Shown here: positions 1,241-27,431 of the stretch, in pieces
Layout of the letters: each line of letters opens with the position of its first letter
Position numbering within the stretch: the stretch's first letter is position 1
NCBI GenBank assembly: GCA_007130145.1
Contig: SLSY01000002.1
Coordinates: 1 to 48,433 of the forward strand
DNA from: Bacillota bacterium
GTDB taxonomy: Bacteria > Bacillota > Sulfobacillia > UBA8153
Direction: 5' to 3'
Length of the DNA stretch: 48,433 bases
Position numbers and translations under genes: made by a program
The notes under the pieces: generated by a model
Database searches by the model: none
Seen by the model: only the letters and a program-made list of their open reading frames with translations
Told to the model about the DNA's origin: nothing

Positions 1241-2365
1241 AAATCAGAGAGAACCGGGAACTGCCGGCGATGGGAGTTGGTGGGGTGCCACTTTTACGAT
1301 CAAACCCGTATCAAGAACTTCTGGGAAGAAGCCAGCCGCCATGGGTGGAGTCATTGCCGGTTGGATGGGAACACGCTGGTGGTCATCAACATAGACCGGG
1401 CGTCGTGGATTCAAAAAAGGAGTAGCCTTCTTCCTGCATACGATCTACCAAGCCGATGTCTTTCATGTGAAGAAAGCGGTGCGGAGCAAGATTCGGAATC
1501 CGACGCAGCGGCAAGCAGCATCCTCCGCAGAGAACCAGCAGCCTCAAACGTTGGAGAGGATTCCAGGCAAGTGGCGGCCGAGCGAACCAGTTCAGACCCG
1601 ACGGAAGAGGCTGGAGGACTCAGCCTGGGACCTCGGTGCATATGTGGGCCAATTCGAGGTAATCGCTCGCCCTCCCGCGTCAACAGAAGCACCGAACGCA
1701 AGGCGCTTTAGGGCATAGCGGATTGTGCCTCAAGCTTTAAATGCTAGGGGAGTGGTGGGTACTCGAGGGTAGGATGGAGACCCATGCCTTCCTTATGGAG
1801 ATGTTGTACGTAGGGCGCCGCCGGGCGCAGGAGGAGGTATGGTCCATCATGTCCGGAGCTGGAGAGGTGTTTCCGGCTACGGTGATTTGCACTTCGCTCA
1901 TATCGGTTAACGAAGCCTCCGGCGTTCTGGCAGAGCCCCGTTTGCACTGTCTGCAGACGGCGGATCAATAAGGCGATACATGCTTGGTGCCTTCCTTCCC
2001 CAACAGCACCCCGCAATCTGCACCTGAATTGTCAGGGCGTCTTACCCCCCTAGAAGTTCGCATCTTCGTCTCTAACAGGTATTCTGCCAAGCGTTTGTGG
2101 CCCCCGGGGGCTCTGCCTCTGGCCATGGGTCACGATCCAAGGTGGTTTTGGGGTCTTCTCTTGATGCCCCATCTCGTTGCCGGCAAGCATGCTTGACACC
2201 CATATCCTCGGTATCCACGCAACGTCATTCTTGTTCGATTCTCACATAGCGACAATTGCACTAATGGATGCGACCATTACGGGCATCTCATCCTGGGTTC
2301 GCCGAGCACCTTTTGCCCCTCTAACCGGCGGCCTCTTGTCGACCCGTTGCCCCCCAGTTGATTGT

Positions 2366-2830
2366 TTAGAACATGTCCTTCTTAAAGCTCTCCCGCGCCC
2401 TCCTGCGGGCTTCATCGCCCGTTTCCTTGCCGGTGAGCACTTCACTCTTGGCGGGGCGGTGATCCTTTTGGCGCACGGGTATCGACTGCTCCCTTTCTTC
2501 ACGATAGTCACAGCAGGGGCAGTCAAATACCGTCCGGCTCCTCCCCTCCTCAGAGGAAGTGGGAGCGACAAGCACCTCGCTGGAAGTCTTTATGTAGTCC
2601 CTGCACTCAGGACACCGCAGACGGAAAAACACCCGCGAAAGGACTAGGAAGATGATTCCTCCCAGGATCAGCAAGCTGATGCGAGTAATATGAGGCGCAG
2701 GATTTAGCAGGGGCTCATTCTGAGCATGGAGGGTCTGGGCTGCTGCCCATGAAGGCAGGAGAACCAGAAGCAACAAGCACATTACCAGAATCGGAAGGAC
2801 GTGTCCGTCCCTCTTTCGGCTCACGGTCAT
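2366..2830 (-). CDS. Hypothetical membrane protein with signal-like N-terminus, one TM segment and a C-terminal CxxC...CxxC zinc ribbon
   Basis: GAGGTG RBS before ATG at 2830; hydrophobic LLLLVLLPSWAAA and ISLLILGGIIFLVLS; CPEC and CPCC motifs. Confidence 0.6.
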   Translation of the reverse strand: MTVSRKRDGHVLPILVMCLLLLVLLPSWAAAQTLHAQNEPLLNPAPHITRISLLILGGIIFLVLSRVFFRLRCPECRDYIKTSSEVLVAPTSSEEGRSRTVFDCPCCDYREEREQSIPVRQKDHRPAKSEVLTGKETGDEARRRARESFKKDMF

Positions 2831-5094: not shown

Positions 5095-6552
5095 CTATCC
5101 TTTGACGACGCCCAACGGCCTGAGCCTGGCCACTATACGGGAGATTCCGGCTTGTTCCACCGTCGTTACTACCGTATGTACATCCTTGTAAGCATCGGGT
5201 GCTTCTTCGGCCAGGGATGCCGCCGATCCGGCCCGGACAAAAATGCCGCGGCTGGCTAAATCCTTCTTTAACTGGCGACCATCAACCCTCTTTTTGGCGG
5301 CCGTGCGGCTCATCCGGCGACCCGCCCCATGGCAGGTGGAACCGAAGGTCTCTTCCATGGCTCGCTGCGTTCCCAAGAGGACGTAGGATGCCGTGCCCAT
5401 ATCACCGGGGACCAACACCGGCTGGCCCCATTCCCGGTACCGGGCAGGCACTTCGGGACGTCCGGGTCCAAAAGCACGGGTTGCACCCTTGCGATGTACG
5501 CAAAGGTCCTGCATCTCTCCATCGACAGTGTGTGTCTCTCGCTTGGCAATATTGTGGGCCACATCATAAACCAATTTCAGCCTGCATTCTCCCGCGCTTT
5601 GATGCAATGCCCGGGCTACAGCCTGTCTCACCCAGTGGGTCATGATCTGCCGGTTGGCCCAGGCATAATTGGCCGCGGCCGCCATGGCAGCAAAGTAATC
5701 TTGTCCTTCTTGACTCGCCAGAGGTGCACAGGCCAGCTGCCGGTCCGGGATCTTGATGTCGTACTTTTTCACCGCGCTCCCCATGACATTCAAAAAGTCC
5801 GAGCAGACCTGGTGACCCAACCCGCGCGAACCGGAATGAACCATGAAAACCACCTGATCGGGGAACAGATCCAGAGCGCGTGCACCCTTGTCATCAAACA
5901 CTTCATCCACGATACCCATTTCCAAGAAGTGATTCCCGGAACCAAGCGTGCCCTGTTGAGATAGACCTCGTTTGCGAGCCCGTTGGGAAAGAGCAGTCTC
6001 TTGCGCCCCTTCCATGCAGCCACCTTCCTCGCAGTATTCCAGGTCATCGGGCTCTCCGTATCCTTCTTCCACGGCCCAATGTGCACCCTTCTCTAGCACT
6101 CGCTTTAGCGCCGATGCATCCAAGCGCAATGGCCCGCGTGATCCCACGCCCGAGGGAATGCTGGTGTAGAGTTCGTTCACCACGGCTTCGGCATGCTTTG
6201 ACACCTCATCCTTGGTCAGATCCGAGCGCAGAAGCCGCACGCCACAGTTTATGTCATAGCCAATTCCGCCGGGAACGATAACGCCGTCCCGGGCATCGGT
6301 GGCAGCCACGCCACCAATGGAAAAGCCGTACCCATAGTGAATGTCGGGCATCGCCAGTGAGGCTTTTACGATCCCGGGCAGGCTCGCCACGTGGGCTACT
6401 TGTTCCGGGGCCTGGTCTTGCCGGAGGGCATCAAGCATGTCCTCATGGGCATAGATCAGCCCGGGCACGCGCATGAAGTCCCGGTACGTCTCCGGAATGC
6501 GCCACCGACATGTGCCTGCCGGTTCCAGTGGTCCGTGCCAACGTTGACTCAT
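5095..6552 (-). CDS. rtcB: RNA-splicing/repair ligase RtcB
   Basis: MPDIHYGYGFSIGGV, YDINCGVRL, GTLGSGNHFLE, HSGSRG, VAHN, HRKGATRAF, STCHGAGR, RLRPLGVVKG. Start ATG 6552 follows a GGAGGGG RBS. Confidence 0.96.
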   Translation of the reverse strand: MSQRWHGPLEPAGTCRWRIPETYRDFMRVPGLIYAHEDMLDALRQDQAPEQVAHVASLPGIVKASLAMPDIHYGYGFSIGGVAATDARDGVIVPGGIGYDINCGVRLLRSDLTKDEVSKHAEAVVNELYTSIPSGVGSRGPLRLDASALKRVLEKGAHWAVEEGYGEPDDLEYCEEGGCMEGAQETALSQRARKRGLSQQGTLGSGNHFLEMGIVDEVFDDKGARALDLFPDQVVFMVHSGSRGLGHQVCSDFLNVMGSAVKKYDIKIPDRQLACAPLASQEGQDYFAAMAAAANYAWANRQIMTHWVRQAVARALHQSAGECRLKLVYDVAHNIAKRETHTVDGEMQDLCVHRKGATRAFGPGRPEVPARYREWGQPVLVPGDMGTASYVLLGTQRAMEETFGSTCHGAGRRMSRTAAKKRVDGRQLKKDLASRGIFVRAGSAASLAEEAPDAYKDVHTVVTTVEQAGISRIVARLRPLGVVKG

Positions 6553-12566: not shown

Positions 12567-13663
12567 CGCACTCTCCTTGCAACTCCTTCTTCTACTTCGT
12601 AAAGATGAGCTTGATGCATAGCCGGTGAACCTGCCATGAGTTCTTTATCAGTACACGTAATGATGGTCTGATTTTCTGCTCCCAATACCGCCAGAAGGCG
12701 CTTTTGTCGGGAAGTATCCAGTTCAGAGAGGACATCGTCCAGAAGTAAGATGGGCATGACGCCTTCACGCTGACAAATCTTGTCTCTTACGGCGACTTTC
12801 AGGGCCAAAACCGCACAGCGCTGCTGACCCTGCGAGCCATGGCTTCTCAACTCAAGCCCGTCAATTTGCAGCGAAAGATCATCTCGGTGAGGGCCGACCA
12901 GGGATAGTCCCCTGGCCCGCTCCATGGGTCTTTTCTCCATAAGACGCGCGCGATATACGTCAGGGTCGGCCACAACCGACGGACGGTACGTCACAATCAT
13001 TTCTTCTGTGCCGTCACTCAGTTTCTGATGCATGGCCGCGGCAATGGGTGCTAGTTCCTCTATGATCTGGGCTCTTTGCGACACTAGATCGCAGCCGCTT
13101 TCCACCAATTGGCGGTCCCAGGATAGGAGCAGTTCATCGGGTATAGGTTGACCTATGTAGTCCTTCAAGACACGGTTTCGCTGACTCAAAGCGCGGTGAA
13201 AGCGATTGAGCAGCTTGCGATAGGCTCCAGAACCGAGAAAGACCTCTTCATCCAAGAAACGCCGCCGGACCGCCGGTGCCCCTTTGATCAGTTCCAGATC
13301 CTCTGGGGCAAACAAGACCACCTTTAGACCCGAAGTCACACCGCCCAAGCGATTCTTGTAGGTTCTTCCATCCACCCTGAGCCTCTTTCCCTTCTCAGGG
13401 TAATAGCCGGATTCGATTTGGTGGTTGACCTCGTTTCGTTCCAAACTCAGGTGGAGGGAAAATCCATCTTTTCCCCGGCGCACCAAATCTCTTTCCCCAG
13501 ACATGCGATGAGATTTTCCCACCGCCAGCAAATAGAGGGATTCTAGAACATTGGTCTTTCCTTGCGCGTTCCCCCCACTGAGAATGGTGATGTGGGACGA
13601 AAAGGAAAAGACCTGTCTGGCGTAGTTGCGGAAATTCTCCAGTCCGAGTTCTCGTATCCTCAT
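12563..13663 (-). CDS. recF: DNA replication/repair protein RecF
   Basis: NFRNY, GGNAQGKTN, GPHRDDL, GSQGQQR, LLLDDVLSELD. Confidence 0.97.
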   Translation of the reverse strand: MRIRELGLENFRNYARQVFSFSSHITILSGGNAQGKTNVLESLYLLAVGKSHRMSGERDLVRRGKDGFSLHLSLERNEVNHQIESGYYPEKGKRLRVDGRTYKNRLGGVTSGLKVVLFAPEDLELIKGAPAVRRRFLDEEVFLGSGAYRKLLNRFHRALSQRNRVLKDYIGQPIPDELLLSWDRQLVESGCDLVSQRAQIIEELAPIAAAMHQKLSDGTEEMIVTYRPSVVADPDVYRARLMEKRPMERARGLSLVGPHRDDLSLQIDGLELRSHGSQGQQRCAVLALKVAVRDKICQREGVMPILLLDDVLSELDTSRQKRLLAVLGAENQTIITCTDKELMAGSPAMHQAHLYEVEEGVARRVR

Positions 13664-14799
13664 ACAGCGCTTTCTTCACCCTCACTGCGCAAAGGCATAA
13701 TCACGTAGACAAAGTCCTCGCTATCAGGGAAGGTCAACGTCGCTGCCGATTCTTTACCGGTCAGATTCACCGCCACCGTCTCCTCCTCCATATGGCGCAA
13801 TCCTTCCTGAAGATACTTCACGTTGAAGTGAAGGTCCATGGCTTCTCCGGTGCAGTTGGCAGCAATCTCTTCTCTGGCCTCACCCAATTGCGGGGTCGAT
13901 GCGCTCACCAGTACGCCCTGATCTTGCATTTGTATACGGACGGTACGATCATCATCAGTAGAAACAAGCGACATCCGATCGGCTGCCTGCAAAAACTCCT
14001 CGGTATTGATGACCATGTGGGAAATGTATTTCTCTTCTGCCGGGATGAACTGGTCATAAGCTGGAAACTGCCCTTCCAATAAGCGGGCTGATATGGTTAA
14101 ATCACGCATGGTAAAGAAGGCATGGCTGTTGCACAGTTTTATCTCCACTTCCCTGTCTTCACTACCCATGCTGCGCATAACCTCATTGAGAATACGCGCC
14201 GGGATGACGCTGCGTTGGCCGTCCCCGCTGATACGTCCTTGCAACTTTATTCTTCTCACCACCAGCCGCGCATAATCCACGGCCGCCACCGTCAAAATCC
14301 TGTCTTCTAAAGCAAACAAAACACCGGCCAGAATGGGTCTGCGATCGCTTTGCGACGTAGCGAAGATGACCTGCATGATGATCTTCTTGAGGGTGTCACT
14401 GTTCATCGTCATACCCCACTCCTCCTTCTCCTCCGGAAGGGTGGGAAACTGCTCTGGTTCCACGCCGTGTATATCGAACGAAGATCGAGCGCCCCATGTC
14501 AGTTGCGCCTTGAAGTTGGTCATATCTACCGTGATATCAAGAGGAGCATTGGGAAGCCGGCGCACGGCTTCGGTGAGAATGCGGGCTGGAAGCACAATGG
14601 CACCTTCCTCTCTTACCTCTGCCTCCATGGTAAGAGAAACGCCGATCTCCAGATCTGTGGCAGCTAGATACAAAAGATTGGGTGCTGTTGCCCTAAGATA
14701 GATGCCATTGAGCACGGGCATTGAGGACTTACTGGCGGCCGCTCGGTGCACAACCTGTAAAGATTGCATGAATTGATCCTGATTGATACGAATGTCCAT
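13660..14799 (-). CDS. dnaN: DNA polymerase III beta clamp
   Basis: ATDLEI, RLLEGQFPAY, FNVKYL, YVIMPLR; located downstream of dnaA. Confidence 0.96.
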   Translation of the reverse strand: MDIRINQDQFMQSLQVVHRAAASKSSMPVLNGIYLRATAPNLLYLAATDLEIGVSLTMEAEVREEGAIVLPARILTEAVRRLPNAPLDITVDMTNFKAQLTWGARSSFDIHGVEPEQFPTLPEEKEEWGMTMNSDTLKKIIMQVIFATSQSDRRPILAGVLFALEDRILTVAAVDYARLVVRRIKLQGRISGDGQRSVIPARILNEVMRSMGSEDREVEIKLCNSHAFFTMRDLTISARLLEGQFPAYDQFIPAEEKYISHMVINTEEFLQAADRMSLVSTDDDRTVRIQMQDQGVLVSASTPQLGEAREEIAANCTGEAMDLHFNVKYLQEGLRHMEEETVAVNLTGKESAATLTFPDSEDFVYVIMPLRSEGEESAV

Positions 14800-15034
14800 G
14801 TGATTTCCTCCCCGGGTCAGATTATCAACAGAGTATAGCTTCTTTGAACACTTATTGATTGAATTAGGAGTAGTAGAAGGACCTGTGAATTGTGTGGATT
14901 ACTGTCGAAACGCTGTAAGAAGGCGCTTTTACCCTGTGAGCTGAGGTGTGGATAAGGAGCCCTGTGCGGTGAAGGTTGTCCACAATCTCTCAAACTCACG
15001 ATCTATCCACGATCTTTCCACAGAGTTCTCCACC
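14800..15034. other. oriC, dnaA-dnaN segment with DnaA boxes and DnaA-trio unwinding element
   Basis: DnaA boxes TGTGGATAA 14947-14955, TTGTCCACA 14976-14984, TGTGAATTG 14884-14892, TGTGGATTA 14893-14901, TTATCAACA 14822-14830. Minus strand reads box-GGTC-CTTCTACTACTCCTA. Gene orientation diverges around this locus. Confidence 0.9.
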
Positions 15035-16396
15035 CTACGACTGTCGCCCCATGATCTCTTTCTCCAAGGATTGCACAGTTTCATGCAAGGAGGGGTTCCC
15101 TTTTATCTCTTTGCTAATCTTTTCGCAGGCATGGATAACAGTGGTGTGGTCCCGGCCGCCAAACTCCTCGCCGACGCGCGGCAAAGAAAAGGAAGTCAAT
15201 TCCCGGCAAAGGTACATGGCCACATGACGAGGGAACGACAAAGCCCGGCTGCGCTTTTTGGCTTTGAGATCCTCCACCGTAAGCCCATAGTAGTCGGCGA
15301 CATGCTTTTGGATGAGTTCCAAGGAGATAACGCGCGGGCGTTGATCCGGCAAAATATCGCGTAAAGCTTCCTTGGCCAGATCCACATCGATGGGGCGTGA
15401 GGTCAAGGAAGAGTAGGCTACGACACGAATCAAAGAGCCTTCCAGTTCCCGAATGTTCGTCTCAATGCTAAGGGCCACATAACCAATGACTTCCTCGGGA
15501 ATGGAGAGGTGCTGAGACTCGGCCTTCTTCCTCAAGATGGCGATGCGAGTCTCCAAGTCCGGGGGCTGGATATCAGCGATAAGACCCCATTGAAAGCGGG
15601 TGCGCAACCGTTCCTCCAGGGTGGAGATCTCCTTTGGGGGACGGTCACTGGACAGTACGATCTGTTTAGCAGATTGGTGAAGAGCATCAAAGGTGTGAAA
15701 GAATTCTTCCTGCGTGCTCTCTTTGCCGCCCACAAATTGAACGTCGTCTAAAAGCAACACATCAATGTTGCGGTAGCGGTTACGAAAATCCACGGTGCGT
15801 CCGTCACGAATAGCCATAATCAGCTCATTGGTGAAGGTTTCCGACGAAACATAGACCACTTTGATGCTAGGATTATTAAGATAAAGACAATGGCCAATGG
15901 CTTGCATCAGATGGGTCTTCCCCAGCCCTACGCCCCCATAAATGAAAAGGGGATTGTACGCCTTGGCCGGGGCTTCGGACACTGCTTCACAGGCGGCATG
16001 GGCGAATCGGTTTGAGGTACCCACGACGAAGGTGTCGAAGGTGTAGCGGGGATTGAGGGTGGTGGGCGGTTGGGTCCAGCGTGCTTTCTTCCCCCCGTTG
16101 GGATGCTCTTTGACGGCGATGTCACCGGGGGATGCAGAGGTATCGACCTCCAGAATACTGAAGGCAATGCCCACCTTCTGTCCGGTTATGTAACGCAAAG
16201 TCTTACACAGCATGGGCACATAGCGAGTTTCAATCCAGTCCTTGGTGAATTGGTTGGGGACAGCAATGGTGAGTGTATTCCCGTCGAAGTCCAGCGGCTG
16301 GGTGTTCTTGAGCCAGGCCTCAAAACTAGGTTTAAGCAGCTCCTTCTCCATTGCCTCAAGAGTTTGATCCCAGATATGACCCAAATCTGCATCCAT
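15035..16396 (-). CDS. dnaA: Chromosomal replication initiator DnaA
   Basis: LNPRYTFDTFVVG, YNPLFIYGGVGLGKTHL, LLLDDVQF, FGGRDHTTVIHA. Start placed at MDADL (16396). Confidence 0.98.
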   Translation of the reverse strand: MDADLGHIWDQTLEAMEKELLKPSFEAWLKNTQPLDFDGNTLTIAVPNQFTKDWIETRYVPMLCKTLRYITGQKVGIAFSILEVDTSASPGDIAVKEHPNGGKKARWTQPPTTLNPRYTFDTFVVGTSNRFAHAACEAVSEAPAKAYNPLFIYGGVGLGKTHLMQAIGHCLYLNNPSIKVVYVSSETFTNELIMAIRDGRTVDFRNRYRNIDVLLLDDVQFVGGKESTQEEFFHTFDALHQSAKQIVLSSDRPPKEISTLEERLRTRFQWGLIADIQPPDLETRIAILRKKAESQHLSIPEEVIGYVALSIETNIRELEGSLIRVVAYSSLTSRPIDVDLAKEALRDILPDQRPRVISLELIQKHVADYYGLTVEDLKAKKRSRALSFPRHVAMYLCRELTSFSLPRVGEEFGGRDHTTVIHACEKISKEIKGNPSLHETVQSLEKEIMGRQS

Positions 16397-16564
16397 AATG
16401 ACCGTACCATCCTCTCGAGGGATTGTAACCGTAGTCCTTCGCCCATTCAACTTCTGTATAAACAAAGGCCGTGCTAGCGACCCAAAAGGCGCTGTTCAGT
16501 AATCCAACAAGTCCTGTCTACGTGGGGTATGTATCTGTGTTGGTCTTCATAGACTTCTCACAAG

Positions 16565-16597
16565 TTATTCACAGGCTTATGCACAGACTGTGGATAA
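16565..16597. promoter_or_regulatory. DnaA-box cluster upstream of dnaA (second part of a bipartite oriC and/or autoregulatory site)
   Basis: TTATTCACA 16565-16573, TTATGCACA 16577-16585, TGTGGATAA 16589-16597. Confidence 0.85.
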
Positions 16598-16640
16598 AGG
16601 CCAAGAAACGCCGGGAATGCCCGGCGATTCTCACAGTAAC

Positions 16641-16669
16641 ATGATAGCAAAGTTGGCGCCATTTGACAA
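16641..16669 (-). promoter_or_regulatory. SigA-like dnaA promoter
   Basis: TTGTCA-17 bp-TATCAT with TG extension; the DnaA boxes lie just downstream. Confidence 0.6.
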
Positions 16670-16905
16670 CGCACAAGTATGTTCGCAAAAAACCCTCAAA
16701 CAAGCATGTAAGCAGGAATTAGAATGGCAGTAAGCTGGTCTTGTATTGAGAACTTAGTTCTAACCATTCGTCCCACGAGGGCGTCTTCCTGCACGGCCAG
16801 CCAGAAAAGAACCACCAAAGTTCACATTTCCTTAGCCATAAGGTCCAATGGTGCGGCGTAGCCGCAAGAGCAGCGTGTGAAACAGGGGCGATGCGTTGGC
16901 CTTCC

Positions 16906-16935
16906 TTGACACTCTCGCCGACAAAAGGATATAAT
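16906..16935 (+). promoter_or_regulatory. SigA promoter of the rpmH operon
   Basis: Perfect TTGACA-18 bp-TATAAT. Confidence 0.8.
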
Positions 16936-16970
16936 CCTAGTGATTCAATTCGACTTGGAGGCACAAATCC

Positions 16971-17105
16971 GTGAAGAGAACATATCAACCAAAAAATCGC
17001 AAAGCCAAGCGCGTCCATGGTTTCCGAGCCCGCATGCGTACTGCTGCCGGTCGTCGTCTGCTGAAGCGGCGCCGGGCCAAGGGACGCACGCGGCTCTCGG
17101 CGTGA
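16971..17105 (+). CDS. rpmH: 50S ribosomal protein L34 (not in ORF track)
   Basis: Hand translation [44 protein letters not shown]; GGAGG RBS. Confidence 0.97.
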
Positions 17106-23133: not shown

Positions 23134-23979
23134 GTGGCGCGGGTGCTACGAAGAGGGCAGATGCGCGGCAAACTCAAGAAAGAAAGCAGTTACACCGTGT
23201 TGAACTTAGCGGTTGAGTCCATCTTGTTTAATCCGTACCAACCACGCAAGACAGAAGTGGGCCGAGATATTGATGAGTTGGCCGCATCCATCCGGCAGCA
23301 CGGAGTGCTGCAACCGGTCGTGGTGCGAAGAGTGGGCCGGGGGTACGAATTGATAGCCGGTGAACGGCGGCTCAGGGCCTGCAAGCAGGCGGGCGCTAAA
23401 ACTATTCCTGCCATCGTTCGCTCGGTGGGCGATGAAGAGCTGGCCCTCTTGGCGTTGGTGGAGAACTTGCAGCGCCGGGGTTTGAACGTGCTTGATGAAG
23501 CGGAGGGATACCGTAGCCTCATGAGCAAGTTTGCGCTCACGCAGGAGGAAATTGCAGCACAAGTGGGAAAGAGCCAACCCACCATCGCCAACAAACTTCG
23601 ACTGCTCAAACTCCCTGGTGCCGTGCAGGAAGAACTGCGACGAGAGGCGCTAACCGAGCGGCATGCTCGTGCCTTGCTCAGATTACCTTGTGACAAGCAG
23701 CAGCTGGAGATCATGGAGACGGTGCTTGCTGGCAACCTCAATGTGGCTCAAACCGACGAACTGGTGGATGAGGTAACCAAGGAGGCTTCACCCCATCCCC
23801 CGGTCAAGCGACAGCGGGTACGTGTTTTCAAGGACCTGCGCATCTTCCTCAATTCGTTCCGTCAGGTAGTGGCGGCACTGAGGCGCACGGGGGTAGAGGC
23901 GGTCATGGAAGAGGATGAGGATGAACGTTGCTGGCGCATTCAAGTCAGTATCGCCAAGCCCGGCGAGAAAGGGGTCTAA
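23134..23979 (+). CDS. noc: Nucleoid occlusion protein Noc (ParB paralogue)
   Basis: NPYQPR, GERRLRA, ENLQR; HTH GKSQPTIANKLRLLKL...ERHAR with Noc-type Q/K/K/R residues; C-terminal KDLRIFLNS; position between rsmG and soj. Start uncertain (ATG 23161 possible). Confidence 0.88.
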   Translation: MARVLRRGQMRGKLKKESSYTVLNLAVESILFNPYQPRKTEVGRDIDELAASIRQHGVLQPVVVRRVGRGYELIAGERRLRACKQAGAKTIPAIVRSVGDEELALLALVENLQRRGLNVLDEAEGYRSLMSKFALTQEEIAAQVGKSQPTIANKLRLLKLPGAVQEELRREALTERHARALLRLPCDKQQLEIMETVLAGNLNVAQTDELVDEVTKEASPHPPVKRQRVRVFKDLRIFLNSFRQVVAALRRTGVEAVMEEDEDERCWRIQVSIAKPGEKGV

Positions 23980-24067: not shown

Positions 24068-24153
24068 GAAAGTCTCTCAGGATAGAAAACAGGGAAGCAC
24101 GGCGACCTTGCCGAAAGAGCGAGGGAGTATGAAACAGTAGGAGGGAGGACGAA

Positions 24154-24198
24154 GTGGATAGAGTTATCGCCATTGTGAACCAAAAGGGCGGAGTAGGG
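24154..24198 (+). CDS. parA: ParA/Soj exon 1 (MDRVIAIVNQKGGVG)
   Basis: GGAGG RBS, GTG start, 15 codons matching the Soj N-terminus and the first half of the deviant Walker A; ends exactly at the intron GTGCG. Confidence 0.95.
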
Positions 24199-25885
24199 GT
24201 GCGTCCGAGATGGTTCGCGTTGCAGTGCCCTGAGGGGTCGCCGATGAGAGCGAGATCGGTGTGACTGTCCGGCTCCAGCTGCAGTCGAAAGGCTATTTTA
24301 GCAGCGAACATAGCATGCCGGAAGGGGGGGAGCCCAGCGCTTGCCCGCCTCTTTGCAGTCAAGGTACAGCATGGTGAAGGCCGGATTGCTTGAACTCTAG
24401 TTTCCCAGCCCAAACCGCCGGGAACACCCGAATGGATCGGGTGTTGGGAGTGGTCTGCGAGACAAGTCCCTGCTTGCCTCGTACGCTCTGACCCTCCTCA
24501 TACGCAGGATGATTGCGTGAGGGAAACGGACGGAGCACCTACACTGTACGGGAAGTCATTCTGTGCGCGAGCTAACCGGAGATTGCCTAACGTGGAGACG
24601 TTTCATCAAGGCAACGGAGTCCTCATAGTAGTCGGAGAGCGGGAAAGCCGCTTACAACCTGCTTGTGCAGGGCCCTCTGGGGCGGGCGAAGGAGGACAGG
24701 TCACCGGGTGACCCGAGAACTACGGAGGTATGCGAAATGCAAAGAGCTGAAGTGGTCCTGGGGGCCCTGAGAAGAAATGCCGAGAAAGAAGGATTTGTGT
24801 TTTCCAGGGTCTACCGCTACCTTTACAACCCCGGGATGTACCGGGAAGGCGTTAGAGCGCGGGTGGATGAGTTGGGGGACCAGCTGAGAGCAGAGCGTTA
24901 CTATCCAGCAGGTAGAGAAGAAGACGCATGGGTAGAGGAGGCAGTGATGTGCCTGCTTGAAGCCATGTTCCCTCAAGAGCGCGACGATGCTGACACCAAT
25001 CGGTGGGCGCAGGTAAAGGCCTCACCAGAGTGTCGCTGGGCCTTGCGCTATGATATCGAAACTGCCTGCGATGGATGGCACGCTCTCTATCGCCTACTCG
25101 GCCCCCACCTGCAGGATGGGCGTTTTTGGGAGTTGCTGCACCGGTTTCACTTGTTTCAGGGCAAGGACGGGAGAGTGGCAAAGATGCTGAAGCGACTTGC
25201 CTGTGGGAGGCTGCAAGCGTCTATGCAGGCCATGCATCCTGCAACCAGGCGTTTCATCGAGGGGCATGAGGTCCTCTTTTTGGGACGTGTGGAGTCCAGC
25301 ATGAACCAGCAACGCGCTGCTATCGAGAACGTCGCCGGGGCCAGAGGAGTGGATGTCAAACTGGAGATCGCAGCGGATATCCGCCGGGGAAGCGTCCGGC
25401 TTGGCCCCTATGCGGTGAGAGCCGGCCGCCGGCGTTGCTTTCTCCTGATTCCGGGAGACTCCCTGCGGCGGTGGCGGCGGCCATTCACCTACCGCGGTCA
25501 TCCCGCTGCCCGCAACGATCGTTTGTACCTGACAGCCTCCAGGATTGTCCAGATCTACCGGCAAGAACTGACAGCATGGTTTCAGACATTCCGCGAGGCA
25601 GATAACCTGCGCGCAAGGCTGAGGGAGTTTCACTTCTATCATGGCCAAAGCCTTCTGAAGACCTTGGCCAAGAAGGATGGACTGTCTCTCAGGCAAGCAG
25701 CTGCCAAGTACCGGGTGCTTCAAGACCGTGATGAAGGTAGAGCGGGCCTTTCAGGGGGAGACCAGCACAGTTTCTATCCGTTACAGATTCGGCAGCTTTT
25801 CTCAGCGTGACGGGAGAGCCGGGTGCATTGAAAGGTGCATGCCCGGTTCGGAGGGGGGTTGAGCGACCGCCTTGATCTACCCTAC
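24199..25885 (+). mobile_element. Group IIA (mitochondrial-like lineage) intron interrupting parA
   Basis: 5' GTGCG; 3' ...CCCTAC; DV 25816-25849 GAGCCGGGTGCATT-GAAA-GGTGCATGCCCGGTTC with AGC triad; DVI with bulged A25879, 7 nt from the end; EBS1, EBS2 and delta complementary to the exons; excision restores KGGVGKTT in frame. Confidence 0.96.
24737..25810 (+). CDS. Intron-encoded protein: degenerate RT-derived maturase, 357 aa, no YADD, no endonuclease
   Basis: GGAGG RBS at 24724-24728. LtrA-like blocks: FSRVYRYLYNP (RT0), LRAERYYP (RT1), DAWVEEAVMCLLEAMFP (RT2), WALRYDIE (RT3), LQDGRFWELL, and X-domain-like IVQIYRQEL...SLLKTLAKK. Located in intron domain IV. Confidence 0.88.
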   Translation: MQRAEVVLGALRRNAEKEGFVFSRVYRYLYNPGMYREGVRARVDELGDQLRAERYYPAGREEDAWVEEAVMCLLEAMFPQERDDADTNRWAQVKASPECRWALRYDIETACDGWHALYRLLGPHLQDGRFWELLHRFHLFQGKDGRVAKMLKRLACGRLQASMQAMHPATRRFIEGHEVLFLGRVESSMNQQRAAIENVAGARGVDVKLEIAADIRRGSVRLGPYAVRAGRRRCFLLIPGDSLRRWRRPFTYRGHPAARNDRLYLTASRIVQIYRQELTAWFQTFREADNLRARLREFHFYHGQSLLKTLAKKDGLSLRQAAAKYRVLQDRDEGRAGLSGGDQHSFYPLQIRQLFSA

Positions 25886-26644
25886 AAAACGACGACAGCG
25901 GTCAATTTGGCAGCCGCTTTGGCTGAGGCTGGCAAGAGGGTCCTGGTGGTGGATATCGATCCGCAAGGCAATTCCACAAGTGGCCTGGGCCTGGATAAGC
26001 GCGAGATTACGCAGTGTATTTATGATGTACTCATCGAGGGTCTGCCGCTGACTCAAGTTGTGTGCAAGAGTGCTTCTGCCGGCGTTGATGTGGTGCCGGC
26101 GCGGCTGGATCTAGCTGGTGCCGAGGTTGAGTTGGTCTCCATGATAGCCCGGGAGAGCAAACTCAAAGGAGCGCTGGGAACGGTTGGTGGCCAGTATGAC
26201 TTTCTTCTCATCGACTGTCCCCCGTCTCTCGGCTTGCTTACGGTCAACGCACTCACAGCGGCCGACTCCATTTTGGTGCCCATCCAGTGCGAGTATTACG
26301 CCCTGGAGGGCTTGGGGCAGCTGATGAACACCATCAAACTCGTGCAGACACACCTAAATCCCCGGCTTGTTTTGGAAGGGGTGGTGCTGACGATGTTTGA
26401 TGGTCGTACCAATCTCGCCATGCAGGTTGTTGAGGAGGTAAGGCGCTTTTTCCGTGGAAAGGTATATGGCACGGTGATCCCGCGCAATGTCCGGCTGAGC
26501 GAGGCGCCCAGCTTCGGGCAACCCATCATTGCGTACGACGGGAAATCCAGGGGTGCCCAAGCATACCGGGAATTAGCAAGGGAGGTCCTGCAGCATGGCC
26601 AGGAAGGGGCTGGGCAAGGGGCTCAAAGCCCTGATGCCAGATGA
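25886..26644 (+). CDS. parA: ParA/Soj exon 2 (spliced product 267 aa)
   Basis: KTTTAVNLAA, DIDPQGNST, IDCPPSLG, PIQCEYYALEG, IPRNVRLSEAPS. Confidence 0.96.
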   Translation, partial: KTTTAVNLAAALAEAGKRVLVVDIDPQGNSTSGLGLDKREITQCIYDVLIEGLPLTQVVCKSASAGVDVVPARLDLAGAEVELVSMIARESKLKGALGTVGGQYDFLLIDCPPSLGLLTVNALTAADSILVPIQCEYYALEGLGQLMNTIKLVQTHLNPRLVLEGVVLTMFDGRTNLAMQVVEEVRRFFRGKVYGTVIPRNVRLSEAPSFGQPIIAYDGKSRGAQAYRELAREVLQHGQEGAGQGAQSPDAR

Positions 26645-27431
26645 GGTAGAATCCAACCAAGCAGTTGGAGCCAGCGAACTTAATATTGAGGAGATACGAC
26701 CCAATCCCTACCAACCGCGGCAGCGCTTTGACGGAGAGGGCATGAGGGAACTGGTGGAATCCATCCGGCAACACGGTGTGGTACAACCTGTCCTGGTGCG
26801 CAGTGACGGTGACGGGTATCAAATCATAGCCGGGGAGAGACGTTGGCGGGCTGCGCAGCAGGCGGGACAGAAGCGCATCCCCGTTGTGGTGAAGGAATGC
26901 ACTGAACAAGAGATGATGGAGATAGCGTTGGTGGAGAACCTCCAGCGTGAGGATCTGAATGCGCTGGAGGAAGCCATGGCGTATCGCCGCTTGTTGGAAG
27001 AGTTCTCCTTGACCCAGGAACAAGTGGCGGAGCAAGTGGGGAAGAGCCGGTCGCAAGTGGCCAACACCTTGCGGCTTCTCCAGTTGCACCCCATGGTACA
27101 GGAGATGCTCGAGAAGGGAGACCTGTCACCAGGGCATGCAAGAACGCTCTTGGCCATAGGAGATGGATCAGCGCAGGTGAAAATGGCGCAGCGGGTGGCC
27201 CAAGAGGGCCTTAACGTTCGCCAACTGGAGAACCTCATTCGTTTGGGAGCGCGCCGGCCACCGGTGCGGAGGGTTCCGTCTCCCGATCTGCGGTATGTGC
27301 AAGACAGGATAGGAGAGGCCTTGGGCACGCAAGTTCAGATTACTGGAGAGAAGAAAGGGGTCATCAAGATTCGCTTCCATTCCCCCGAAGATTTGGAGCG
27401 GCTCATGGAGCTCTTGTTGGATGAAAACTAG
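26595..27431 (+). CDS. parB: ParB/Spo0J
   Basis: GLGKGLKAL N-terminus, NPYQPR, GERRWRA, ENLQREDLN, GKSRSQVANTLRLL, GHAR. Confidence 0.96.
   Translation: MARKGLGKGLKALMPDEVESNQAVGASELNIEEIRPNPYQPRQRFDGEGMRELVESIRQHGVVQPVLVRSDGDGYQIIAGERRWRAAQQAGQKRIPVVVKECTEQEMMEIALVENLQREDLNALEEAMAYRRLLEEFSLTQEQVAEQVGKSRSQVANTLRLLQLHPMVQEMLEKGDLSPGHARTLLAIGDGSAQVKMAQRVAQEGLNVRQLENLIRLGARRPPVRRVPSPDLRYVQDRIGEALGTQVQITGEKKGVIKIRFHSPEDLERLMELLLDEN

Follow-up and report, generated by a model that had tools for sequence, protein, structure and literature searches.

A group II intron interrupts soj at the Walker A codons

The window, that is, the whole stretch of DNA analysed here, comprises 48,433 nucleotides of contig SLSY01000002.1 (assembly GCA_007130145.1) from a bacterium of the phylum Bacillota. 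At positions 24199-25885 it contains a group II intron of 1687 nt which interrupts soj/parA, and domain IV of this intron harbours an open reading frame (ORF) for an eroded relative of the reverse transcriptase (RT)-maturase LtrA. All features described lie on the forward (+) strand. An earlier note on this DNA, prepared from the sequence alone, had proposed that the ORF product is an RT-dead, maturase-only protein; the identity of the host gene and the insertion of the intron into its Walker A codons are points beyond that note.

Exon 1 of soj (24154-24198, 15 codons) opens with a GTG start at 24154, reads VDRVIAIVNQKGGVG, ends with ...NQKGGVG, and meets the GTGCG terminus of the intron at 24199. 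The frame resumes after CTACCCTAC, which ends at 25885, and exon 2 (25886-26644) starts with KTTTAVNLAA... and runs for 252 codons plus a stop. Joining the two exons in silico gave an in-frame ParA/Soj protein of 267 amino acids with an intact deviant Walker A motif, and the bounds of the intron were therefore set at 24199-25885, between the Gly and Lys codons of the motif (KGGVG|KTT). The same end of exon 1 recurs in 12 hosts that carry an intron at this site, and all 12 introns share the GTGCG 5' terminus and a CTAC 3' ending.

The 3' part of the intron matched the Rfam model RF00029 (domains V and VI) over its full length (model positions 1-77) at 25814-25885, scoring 62.5 bits (cut-off 40; E 1.1e-10), and this match begins five bases past the stop codon of the ORF. 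Domain V (25816-25849, 34 nt) is delimited by the alignments to RF00029 and RF04356 (25816-25849), and domain VI (25850-25885) is placed by the RF00029 alignment. The A at 25879, which lies 7 nt before the 3' end, is the putative branch point of domain VI; the ending of this domain, ACCCTAC, is kept in 12/12 introns. None of the Rfam D1-D4 families matched the window at E<=1. The stretch at 24199-24736 would hold domains I-III together with the 5' side of domain IV; an alignment of six soj introns showed compensatory, two-sided changes at 82 of the 141 pairs predicted by RNAalifold.

We looked for the pairings between the intron and its 5' exon. Exon-binding site 1 (EBS1, CCCTGC, 24468-24473) follows the delta base (T, 24467) and pairs at 6/6 positions with intron-binding site 1 (IBS1, GTAGGG, 24193-24198) in exon 1. 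Across the 12 introns, EBS1 and IBS1 pair at 68/72 positions, a total reached by none of 10,000 shuffles. EBS1 follows synonymous changes in the Val-Gly codons of the exon, and the third base of the Gly codon covaries with its partner in the intron (G:C, C:G, A:T, T:A) in 11/12 introns. An initial candidate for EBS1, CCTAC at ~24540, was dropped, as it left exon position -1 unpaired and showed no covariation, and was replaced by the loop at 24468-24473. Candidates for the second pairing, IBS2 (GGCGG, 24187-24191; IBS2 and IBS1 together span 24187-24198) and EBS2 (CCGCC in a hairpin loop, 24415-24419), were identified by eye and are tentative; complementarity to the exon GGCGG was seen in 4/6 introns, the match being imperfect in the Laceyella and Heliobacteriaceae introns. 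All 12 introns have T as delta and A as delta', an invariant pair that shows no covariation. This arrangement would place the element with LtrA-like (IIA, or mitochondrial-like lineage) group II introns.

The intron-encoded protein retains RT0 and domain X and lacks the polymerase motifs

The ORF (24737-25810) runs uninterrupted from an ATG at 24737 to a TGA at 25810 and encodes a protein of 357 amino acids. A ribosome-binding site, GGAGG (24724-24728), lies 8 nt upstream of the start codon, and the sequence ACGGAGGTATGCG preceding the ATG is invariant in 6/6 aligned introns. A frame of 357 codons would stay open by chance with a probability of ~3e-6, by arithmetic from the base composition (GC ~0.58). 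The composition at the ORF is unremarkable, with a GC content of 0.57-0.59 over 24-26 kb as compared to 0.56-0.58 in the flanks.

Standard domain models did not detect this protein. A Pfam scan gave no match at E<=10 to RVT_1, Intron_maturas2 (PF01348) or GIIM (PF08388) and no match to MatK_N (PF01824), returning only a sub-threshold hit to DUF5798 (E 0.026). None of the NCBIfam families matched, the best hit in a search of PDB sequences was an unrelated chain (E 0.19), and a search of the whole genome with RVT_1 did not report the ORF. A word-based protein search retrieved a single relative, P0001 (34% identity), from a metagenome-assembled genome (MAG) of the Bacillota. A profile of the window protein and P0001 detected 436 cluster representatives at E<=1e-3, 141 of them at E<=1e-10; some of these relatives could be organellar. 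Among the 70 close relatives that were scanned, Intron_maturas2 was found in 60, RVT_1 in 25, an AI2M-like HNH domain (PF21368) in eight and MatK_N in three. The nearest relative, P0004, is also 357 amino acids long and is 43% identical to the window protein.

Comparison of profiles was more informative. A profile of the six-member clade that contains the window protein was aligned with hhalign to 14 canonical RT-X-HNH proteins (99.8%, E 4e-30). The alignment was colinear over template columns 3-481 of 615, which is everything but the DNA-binding/endonuclease tail, in line with the earlier description of the protein as colinear with LtrA-like proteins and heavily eroded. Residues 236-327 aligned to the X region of the canonical proteins with the highest confidence marks, indicating that the C-terminal 90 residues of the protein are homologous to domain X. 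The ORF ends ~30 residues past X and template columns 482-615 are unmatched; the HNH tail is thus absent, as had been claimed.

Individual motifs were checked by alignment with canonical relatives, by hhalign and by column counts. The RT0 segment is present (MQRAEVVLGAL..RVYRYLYNP). The columns of RT1 (T.DG) and RT2 (RPLGIP) are gaps, ADTNRW stands opposite SHGFRP, and the PQGG columns are also gaps, the local text being QGKDGRVAKML. EGHE, inside RRFIEGHEVLFLG, stands opposite YADD, so that both RT5 aspartates are replaced, and LGPY stands opposite FLGY. The thumb/X motif SLLKTLAKK is intact and fits the consensus S..KT.A.K. The motif losses listed in the earlier note were thereby confirmed, with two corrections: thumb/X, which it took for the best preserved part, is well kept without being the single best, RT0 being kept at least as well, and an aspartate still occupies the RT3 position.

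A model of the protein predicted by AlphaFold from an alignment of 150 sequences had a mean predicted local distance difference test score (pLDDT) of 90.1 and a predicted template modelling score (pTM) of 0.82; a single-sequence model (pLDDT 39) was unusable and was discarded. The best match among solved structures was LtrA bound to its intron (8h2h_D; Foldseek E 3e-8, template modelling score 0.70). VIA-align superposed 346 of the 357 residues on LtrA residues 1-512 of 599 with a Z score of 20.2, and here too the alignment stops short of the endonuclease tail. RTs of the T.el4h, Eubacterium/Roseburia and GsI-IIC types followed (Z 16-18). The right-hand fingers/palm/thumb fold is common to the model of the window protein and five group II intron RTs (VIA-align Z 16-20), which is no proof of activity. 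The model predicts that the LtrA-type RT and thumb fold is kept and that the residues which make a polymerase are gone.

Taken together, the alignments place the window protein in the LtrA-like (Intron_maturas2) lineage, as a branch that has undergone strong erosion. Its ancestor appears to have been a full reverse transcriptase-maturase-endonuclease, of which RT0 at the N terminus, the general fold of fingers and palm, and thumb/X are still present; the active site of the polymerase is gone, as is the DNA-binding/endonuclease tail in its entirety. RT activity has, judging from these losses, probably disappeared.

Introns at the same site form a graded series of RT decay

The 12 introns with common termini at the soj site came from three genera of the window's family, eight Thermoactinomycetaceae and one Heliobacteriaceae MAG. 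Both other genomes of the window's family, G001 and G002 (UBA8153), which belong to different genera, carry the intron, as does metagenome contig L061; in the other 57 genomes of the same class, matches were either weak (E no better than 1e-4) or absent. The carriers also include Melghirimyces algeriensis and Laceyella putida. In the Melghirimyces family, 7/14 genomes contain the intron, always in soj and always as one copy (E<=1e-50). Five of the seven non-carriers were checked, and in all five soj was continuous (...NQKGGVG|KTTT...).

The intron ORF was open in each of the 11 copies that could be judged, with protein identities falling to ~25%. The Heliobacteriaceae copy (L015:4701-4800 and 5400-5726) was left out of this count, since a 100-nt masked stretch interrupts its ORF; the two halves, on either side of this stretch, lie in different frames. 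Orthologues full of stops or frameshifts, which the earlier note had named as the sign of neutral decay, were accordingly not found among these copies.

The motifs of the RT decay by degrees along this set. The Heliobacteriaceae copy keeps RT1-RT4 and YADD, with an HNH-like remnant out of frame with X. The protein of L052 keeps PQG and has YADH in place of YADD, and YADE, FADR, YAGR, YAER, YAHQ and WGEH replace YADD in other copies, a pattern expected of an unconstrained site. In the window's family almost everything has been lost. We considered whether the window protein might nevertheless still polymerize, weakly or in an altered manner, by means of a non-canonical active site. The preserved RT fold (Z 20.2 to LtrA) and an aspartate that still occupies the RT3 position (RYDI versus EGDI) would fit such an activity. 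Neither aspartate of RT5 is left, however, deletions have removed PQG as well as the RT1/RT2 finger motifs, and orthologues have exchanged YADD in the various ways just listed, so this explanation is scarcely credible.

The earlier suggestion of an undescribed family proved overstated: besides the placement of the protein in the LtrA-like lineage, the less eroded orthologues of the Thermoactinomycetaceae already bear the NCBI annotation group II intron RT/maturase, apart from one that is listed as a hypothetical protein. In a FastTree phylogeny of 130 relatives, the soj-intron proteins of the Thermoactinomycetaceae and of the window were not sisters; support was low and many branches were long, and no conclusion on a single origin was drawn.

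Related proteins also occur at a second host site. A search of genomes across the phylum gave matches at E<=1e-15 in 133/401 genomes, nearly all to ordinary intron RTs, and full-length matches at E<=1e-90 were confined to G000, G113 and G369. In G113 and G369 (L018, ~980-2680, and L019) a group II intron cuts the class II ribonucleotide reductase gene nrdJ, rather than soj, right after TNPCGEQ. It encodes a relative of the window protein of 385-386 amino acids that has no YxDD, with PQG kept in one copy. Two host sites have therefore been seen, the Walker A codons of soj and the TNPCGEQ codons of nrdJ, and the nrdJ intron hints that the pattern is wider than soj.

A scan of metagenomes returned 63 loci, with soj exon 2 in L061 alone. 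The intron is also present in contigs of DNA runs from soda-lake and alkali-sediment samples (four runs), whereas no RNA run was listed as containing the locus. Among the contigs a variant of ~90% identity bridges the junction of exon 1 and intron (24137-24274 and beyond; window 24137-24780), and a related population therefore also carries the intron. Apparent 'skip' joints from ~24191/24197 to exon 2 were considered as intron-less alleles and rejected, as their sides were shorter than 30 letters at 85% likeness; they were taken as parA of other organisms.

Other group II intron sequences were observed alongside these. Laceyella putida soj (L014:5479-8260) is interrupted once more, 26 codons downstream of the first intron, by another group II intron inserted between DIDP and QGN. 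Rfam matches to D1-D4 and domain V mark this intron, and a separate match to an open frame of 630 amino acids lies there. In the genome of the window, contig C258 (648-3686, L002) contains group II intron pieces, namely domain V/VI at 1502-1556 (+) just before a tRNA at 1614-1684 and D1-D4 matches at 2146-2427 (-), with no intron ORF of at least 100 amino acids.

Orthologues of the protein are under purifying selection and have probably diverged with their host gene

We estimated the ratio of nonsynonymous to synonymous substitution rates (dN/dS) for three close pairs of Thermoactinomycetaceae in which dS was unsaturated. The ORF gave dN/dS of 0.27, 0.31 and 0.27 in pairs 1, 2 and 3, with ParA at 0.03, 0.04 and 0.04, respectively. 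By region, thumb/X had the lowest values (0.15-0.18), the remnant of fingers/palm lying at 0.27-0.36. A pair formed by G001 and UBA8153 showed the same order (0.27 in thumb/X, 0.53 in the fingers/palm remnant). dN/dS was therefore below 1 and lowest in X, in agreement with the earlier note, which had expected X to be conserved.

Constraint across a wider sample was assessed in 125 full-length relatives sorted by the presence of YxDD and PQG; 80 lacked both and 26 had both. The RT1, RT2 and RT3 aspartate columns were conserved at 0.10-0.21 in the 80 RT-dead relatives as against 0.85-0.96 in the 26 active-like ones (RT1 aspartate, 0.10 versus 0.85). The X motif S..KT.A.K was kept at 0.94-1.00 in the RT-dead relatives (0.92-1.00 over both groups), and the RT0 motif R.YR.L.NP at 0.8-0.95, at least as well as in the active-like group. 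These frequencies suggest that RT0 and X are under purifying selection for a role other than that of a polymerase.

It could be argued that the ORF is a dispensable relic, in that the intron self-splices or relies on host factors, and that only lag or constraint on the RNA of domain IV has preserved the open frame. This would account for the very long branch of the window protein, for an X region little better conserved than the rest when the window is compared with its sister genus, for the lack of a Pfam match even to the maturase domain, and for a dN/dS of 1.17 in the C-terminal tail of the G001-UBA8153 pair. A relic would not, however, be expected to remain open in 11/11 judgeable orthologues at identities as low as ~25%, to keep its exact length of 357 amino acids in P0004 at 43% identity, to show, in pairs with unsaturated dS, a dN/dS of 0.27-0.31 for the ORF as a whole and of 0.15-0.18 for X, to hold the X and RT0 motifs at the frequencies found in the 80 RT-dead relatives, or to yield a confident, LtrA-like structure model. 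We consider a relic unlikely.

Divergence of the intron was compared with that of its host. In the three pairs, dS of the ORF (0.62, 0.47 and 0.86) was close to that of the host exons (0.51, 0.40 and 0.72), as expected if intron and gene diverged together, and the tree of the intron proteins agreed with that of the host ParA proteins on every well-supported split. Both observations are in keeping with the long-resident, vertically inherited pair envisaged in the earlier note.

The intron is probably an immobile resident

The assembly that contains the window (2.37 Mb in 258 contigs, 96% complete) has one copy of the soj intron, as the earlier note had anticipated for an element that no longer moves. 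The only other RVT_1 match in this genome is fragment-like, a frame of 131 amino acids on contig C202 (16601-16840, L048) that covers profile positions 125-205 (81 positions). The single copy, the lost active site and the lost endonuclease together make current retromobility unlikely.

Mobility could still be supplied by an RT acting in trans or by recombination at the DNA level, in which case the common soj site would reflect repeated homing. Several features are compatible with this: the insertion site is a highly conserved coding sequence, the ancestor could presumably home, given that the Heliobacteriaceae copy has RT1-RT4, YADD and an endonuclease remnant, and in one family the intron is patchy, with 7/14 carriers and continuous soj in 5/5 of the checked non-carriers. 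Against repeated homing stand the single copy in the window's genome, which contains only one RVT_1 fragment, the single copy in each of the seven Melghirimyces-family carriers (E<=1e-50), the similarity of ORF and host exon dS in the three pairs, the agreement of the two trees on all supported splits, and the adaptation of EBS1 to the codons of each host. A still-mobile intron is thus quite improbable.

We therefore favour, with a probability of about 0.8, an immobile and vertically inherited intron-maturase pair at the soj Walker A codons, in which the protein is an RT-dead, LtrA-like maturase, as the earlier note had supposed. The loss of RT activity and the splicing of the intron, which we infer from sequence, are parts of this reading; the intron is likely to be spliced. 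A number of observations weigh against it, besides the aspartate retained at the RT3 position. The window protein is the fastest-evolving member of its group, on a very long branch (~3 changes per site). In its comparison with the sister genus (G001) dS is saturated, and identity in X (0.40) is barely above that in the palm remnant (0.34). The clean selection figures accordingly come from the Thermoactinomycetaceae orthologues and the G001-UBA8153 pair and not from the window protein itself, and in the latter pair overall dN/dS rises to 0.45, with 1.17 in the C-terminal tail. The 125 relatives were sorted by YxDD and PQG, so that only the other motif columns are independent tests. A ParA tree that includes intron-less alleles is poorly resolved; intron presence needs at least 4 changes on it, of which the well-supported branches force only 1. 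For the patchy distribution in the Melghirimyces family (7/14) we have assumed repeated loss, and repeated gain may also have occurred. Finally, the genome is a MAG in 258 contigs, in which repeated copies could have been left unassembled or collapsed.

A model for the action of the maturase and its relation to known systems

The following sequence of events would accommodate these observations, by analogy with work on LtrA and MatK. The intron would be transcribed within the soj-spo0J message, and the protein, translated from domain IV, would bind its own intron RNA. Work on LtrA has established domain IVa (DIVa) as the binding site of the maturase, and the invariant stretch around the ribosome-binding site and start codon (ACGGAGGTATGCG) may be a site of the DIVa type. 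Binding would stabilize the active fold of the ribozyme, the intron would be released as a lariat branched at the bulged domain VI A, and ligation of the exons would restore an intact Walker A motif. Lacking polymerase and endonuclease, the element could not retrohome and would remain an immobile resident; the pair would be kept because soj needs the intron removed from its mRNA. A bolder and speculative extension is that splicing of the intron gates expression of Soj/Spo0J.

The closest known system is Ll.LtrB/LtrA of Lactococcus lactis (PDB 8h2h), the best structural match. The two proteins are colinear in RT0, fingers/palm and thumb/X, and both introns carry the ORF in domain IV with a ribosome-binding site just upstream and show an EBS1/IBS1 and delta arrangement like that of IIA introns. 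LtrA has RT activity and a DNA-binding/endonuclease tail and is capable of retrohoming; the window protein lacks RT1/RT2, PQG, YADD and everything past LtrA residue 512. The hosts differ as well, that of the window intron being a chromosomal core gene and that of Ll.LtrB, according to PMC6003770, a plasmid relaxase gene.

In its condition, the window protein resembles MatK (chloroplast trnK intron) and MatR (mitochondrial nad1 intron 4), which according to PMC4424553 have lost RT motifs, kept domain X and sit in needed host genes, and which are thought to act in splicing only (PMC4424553). MatK and MatR are organellar, whereas the window protein is bacterial. MatK aligns with RTs over motifs 5-7 only, whereas the window protein keeps RT0 and the whole fold; it also has no MatK_N match, and its host gene is soj and not trnK. 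By this comparison the window element would work like MatK/MatR while belonging to the LtrA-like lineage and not to their family.

Among bacterial introns, the cyanobacterial RIR and DnaN introns, with their helper maturase, and the recA intron of Geobacillus kaustophilus likewise reside in conserved genes that need their removal. These introns reportedly encode, or depend on, RT-competent proteins, and we know of no account in which they stay at a single site in several families while the RT decays. A bacterial intron with a 'degenerate' intron-encoded protein and the ORF-less C.te.I1 (Zimmerly and Semper 2015) are, like the soj intron, non-retroelement derivatives of bacterial group II introns; the soj derivative differs in persisting across genera and families. 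Degenerate intron proteins are typical of organelles according to this review (PMC4424553). One intron with such a protein was counted among 225 bacterial genomes, and non-mobile derivatives seem not to persist in bacteria, being reported as very rare and short-lived (PMC4424553). We found no report of a group II intron in soj/parA or of a bacterial clade of RT-dead maturases in the literature covered, which included passages of PMC4424553, PMC7561548, PMC8987985, PMC2814812, PMC3552965 and PMC7306698; the intron database, supplements and subscription journals may hold one.

In the presumed descent of spliceosomal introns from group II introns, the key step is the conversion of a selfish retroelement into a resident intron that only splices. 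This conversion has been well documented in organelles only, and the soj locus with its orthologues displays the whole path in bacteria, at one unchanging position of a core gene. The series at soj leads from an intact YADD with a broken endonuclease tail, through losses of single residues of YADD, to the window protein, which standard domain models do not see, and the exon-binding site tracks the host codons throughout. Annotation pipelines miss the window protein and will probably report soj as truncated or split. Cultures exist for several of the carriers, in which splicing dependence and any regulatory use can be tested directly.

On a wider view we put forward, tentatively and at slightly less than even odds, that free-living bacteria contain a large and overlooked radiation of 'domesticated', immobile ribozyme-maturase pairs. 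Such pairs would be fixed in core genes where the codons are conserved and would pass vertically through lineages as old as families, while their RT decays stepwise, exactly as in organelles. If so, the view that non-mobile derivatives fail to persist in bacteria would be wrong, and the cultivable Thermoactinomycetaceae would offer a tractable bacterial model of the transition from retroelement to intron.

Genes surrounding the split soj gene

The split soj gene lies in the neighbourhood mnmG, rsmG, a ParB-like gene, soj and spo0J, which we take to be the usual origin-proximal gene order of Bacillota. The ParB-like gene upstream (23134-23979) was recognized as an ORF, and the order ParB-like gene, split soj, spo0J is also found in L003 and L013; its noc-type label is our assumption from its position and the gene order of Bacillus. 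Downstream, spo0J/parB (26595-27431) overlaps the end of soj and presumably deserves this name from its ParB-type similarity and from gene order. The cumulative GC skew of the window reaches its minimum at ~13-16 kb and rises after it, and GC content falls to ~0.50 at 14-17 kb; the skew and the drop in GC at 13000-17000 fit a replication origin inside the window.

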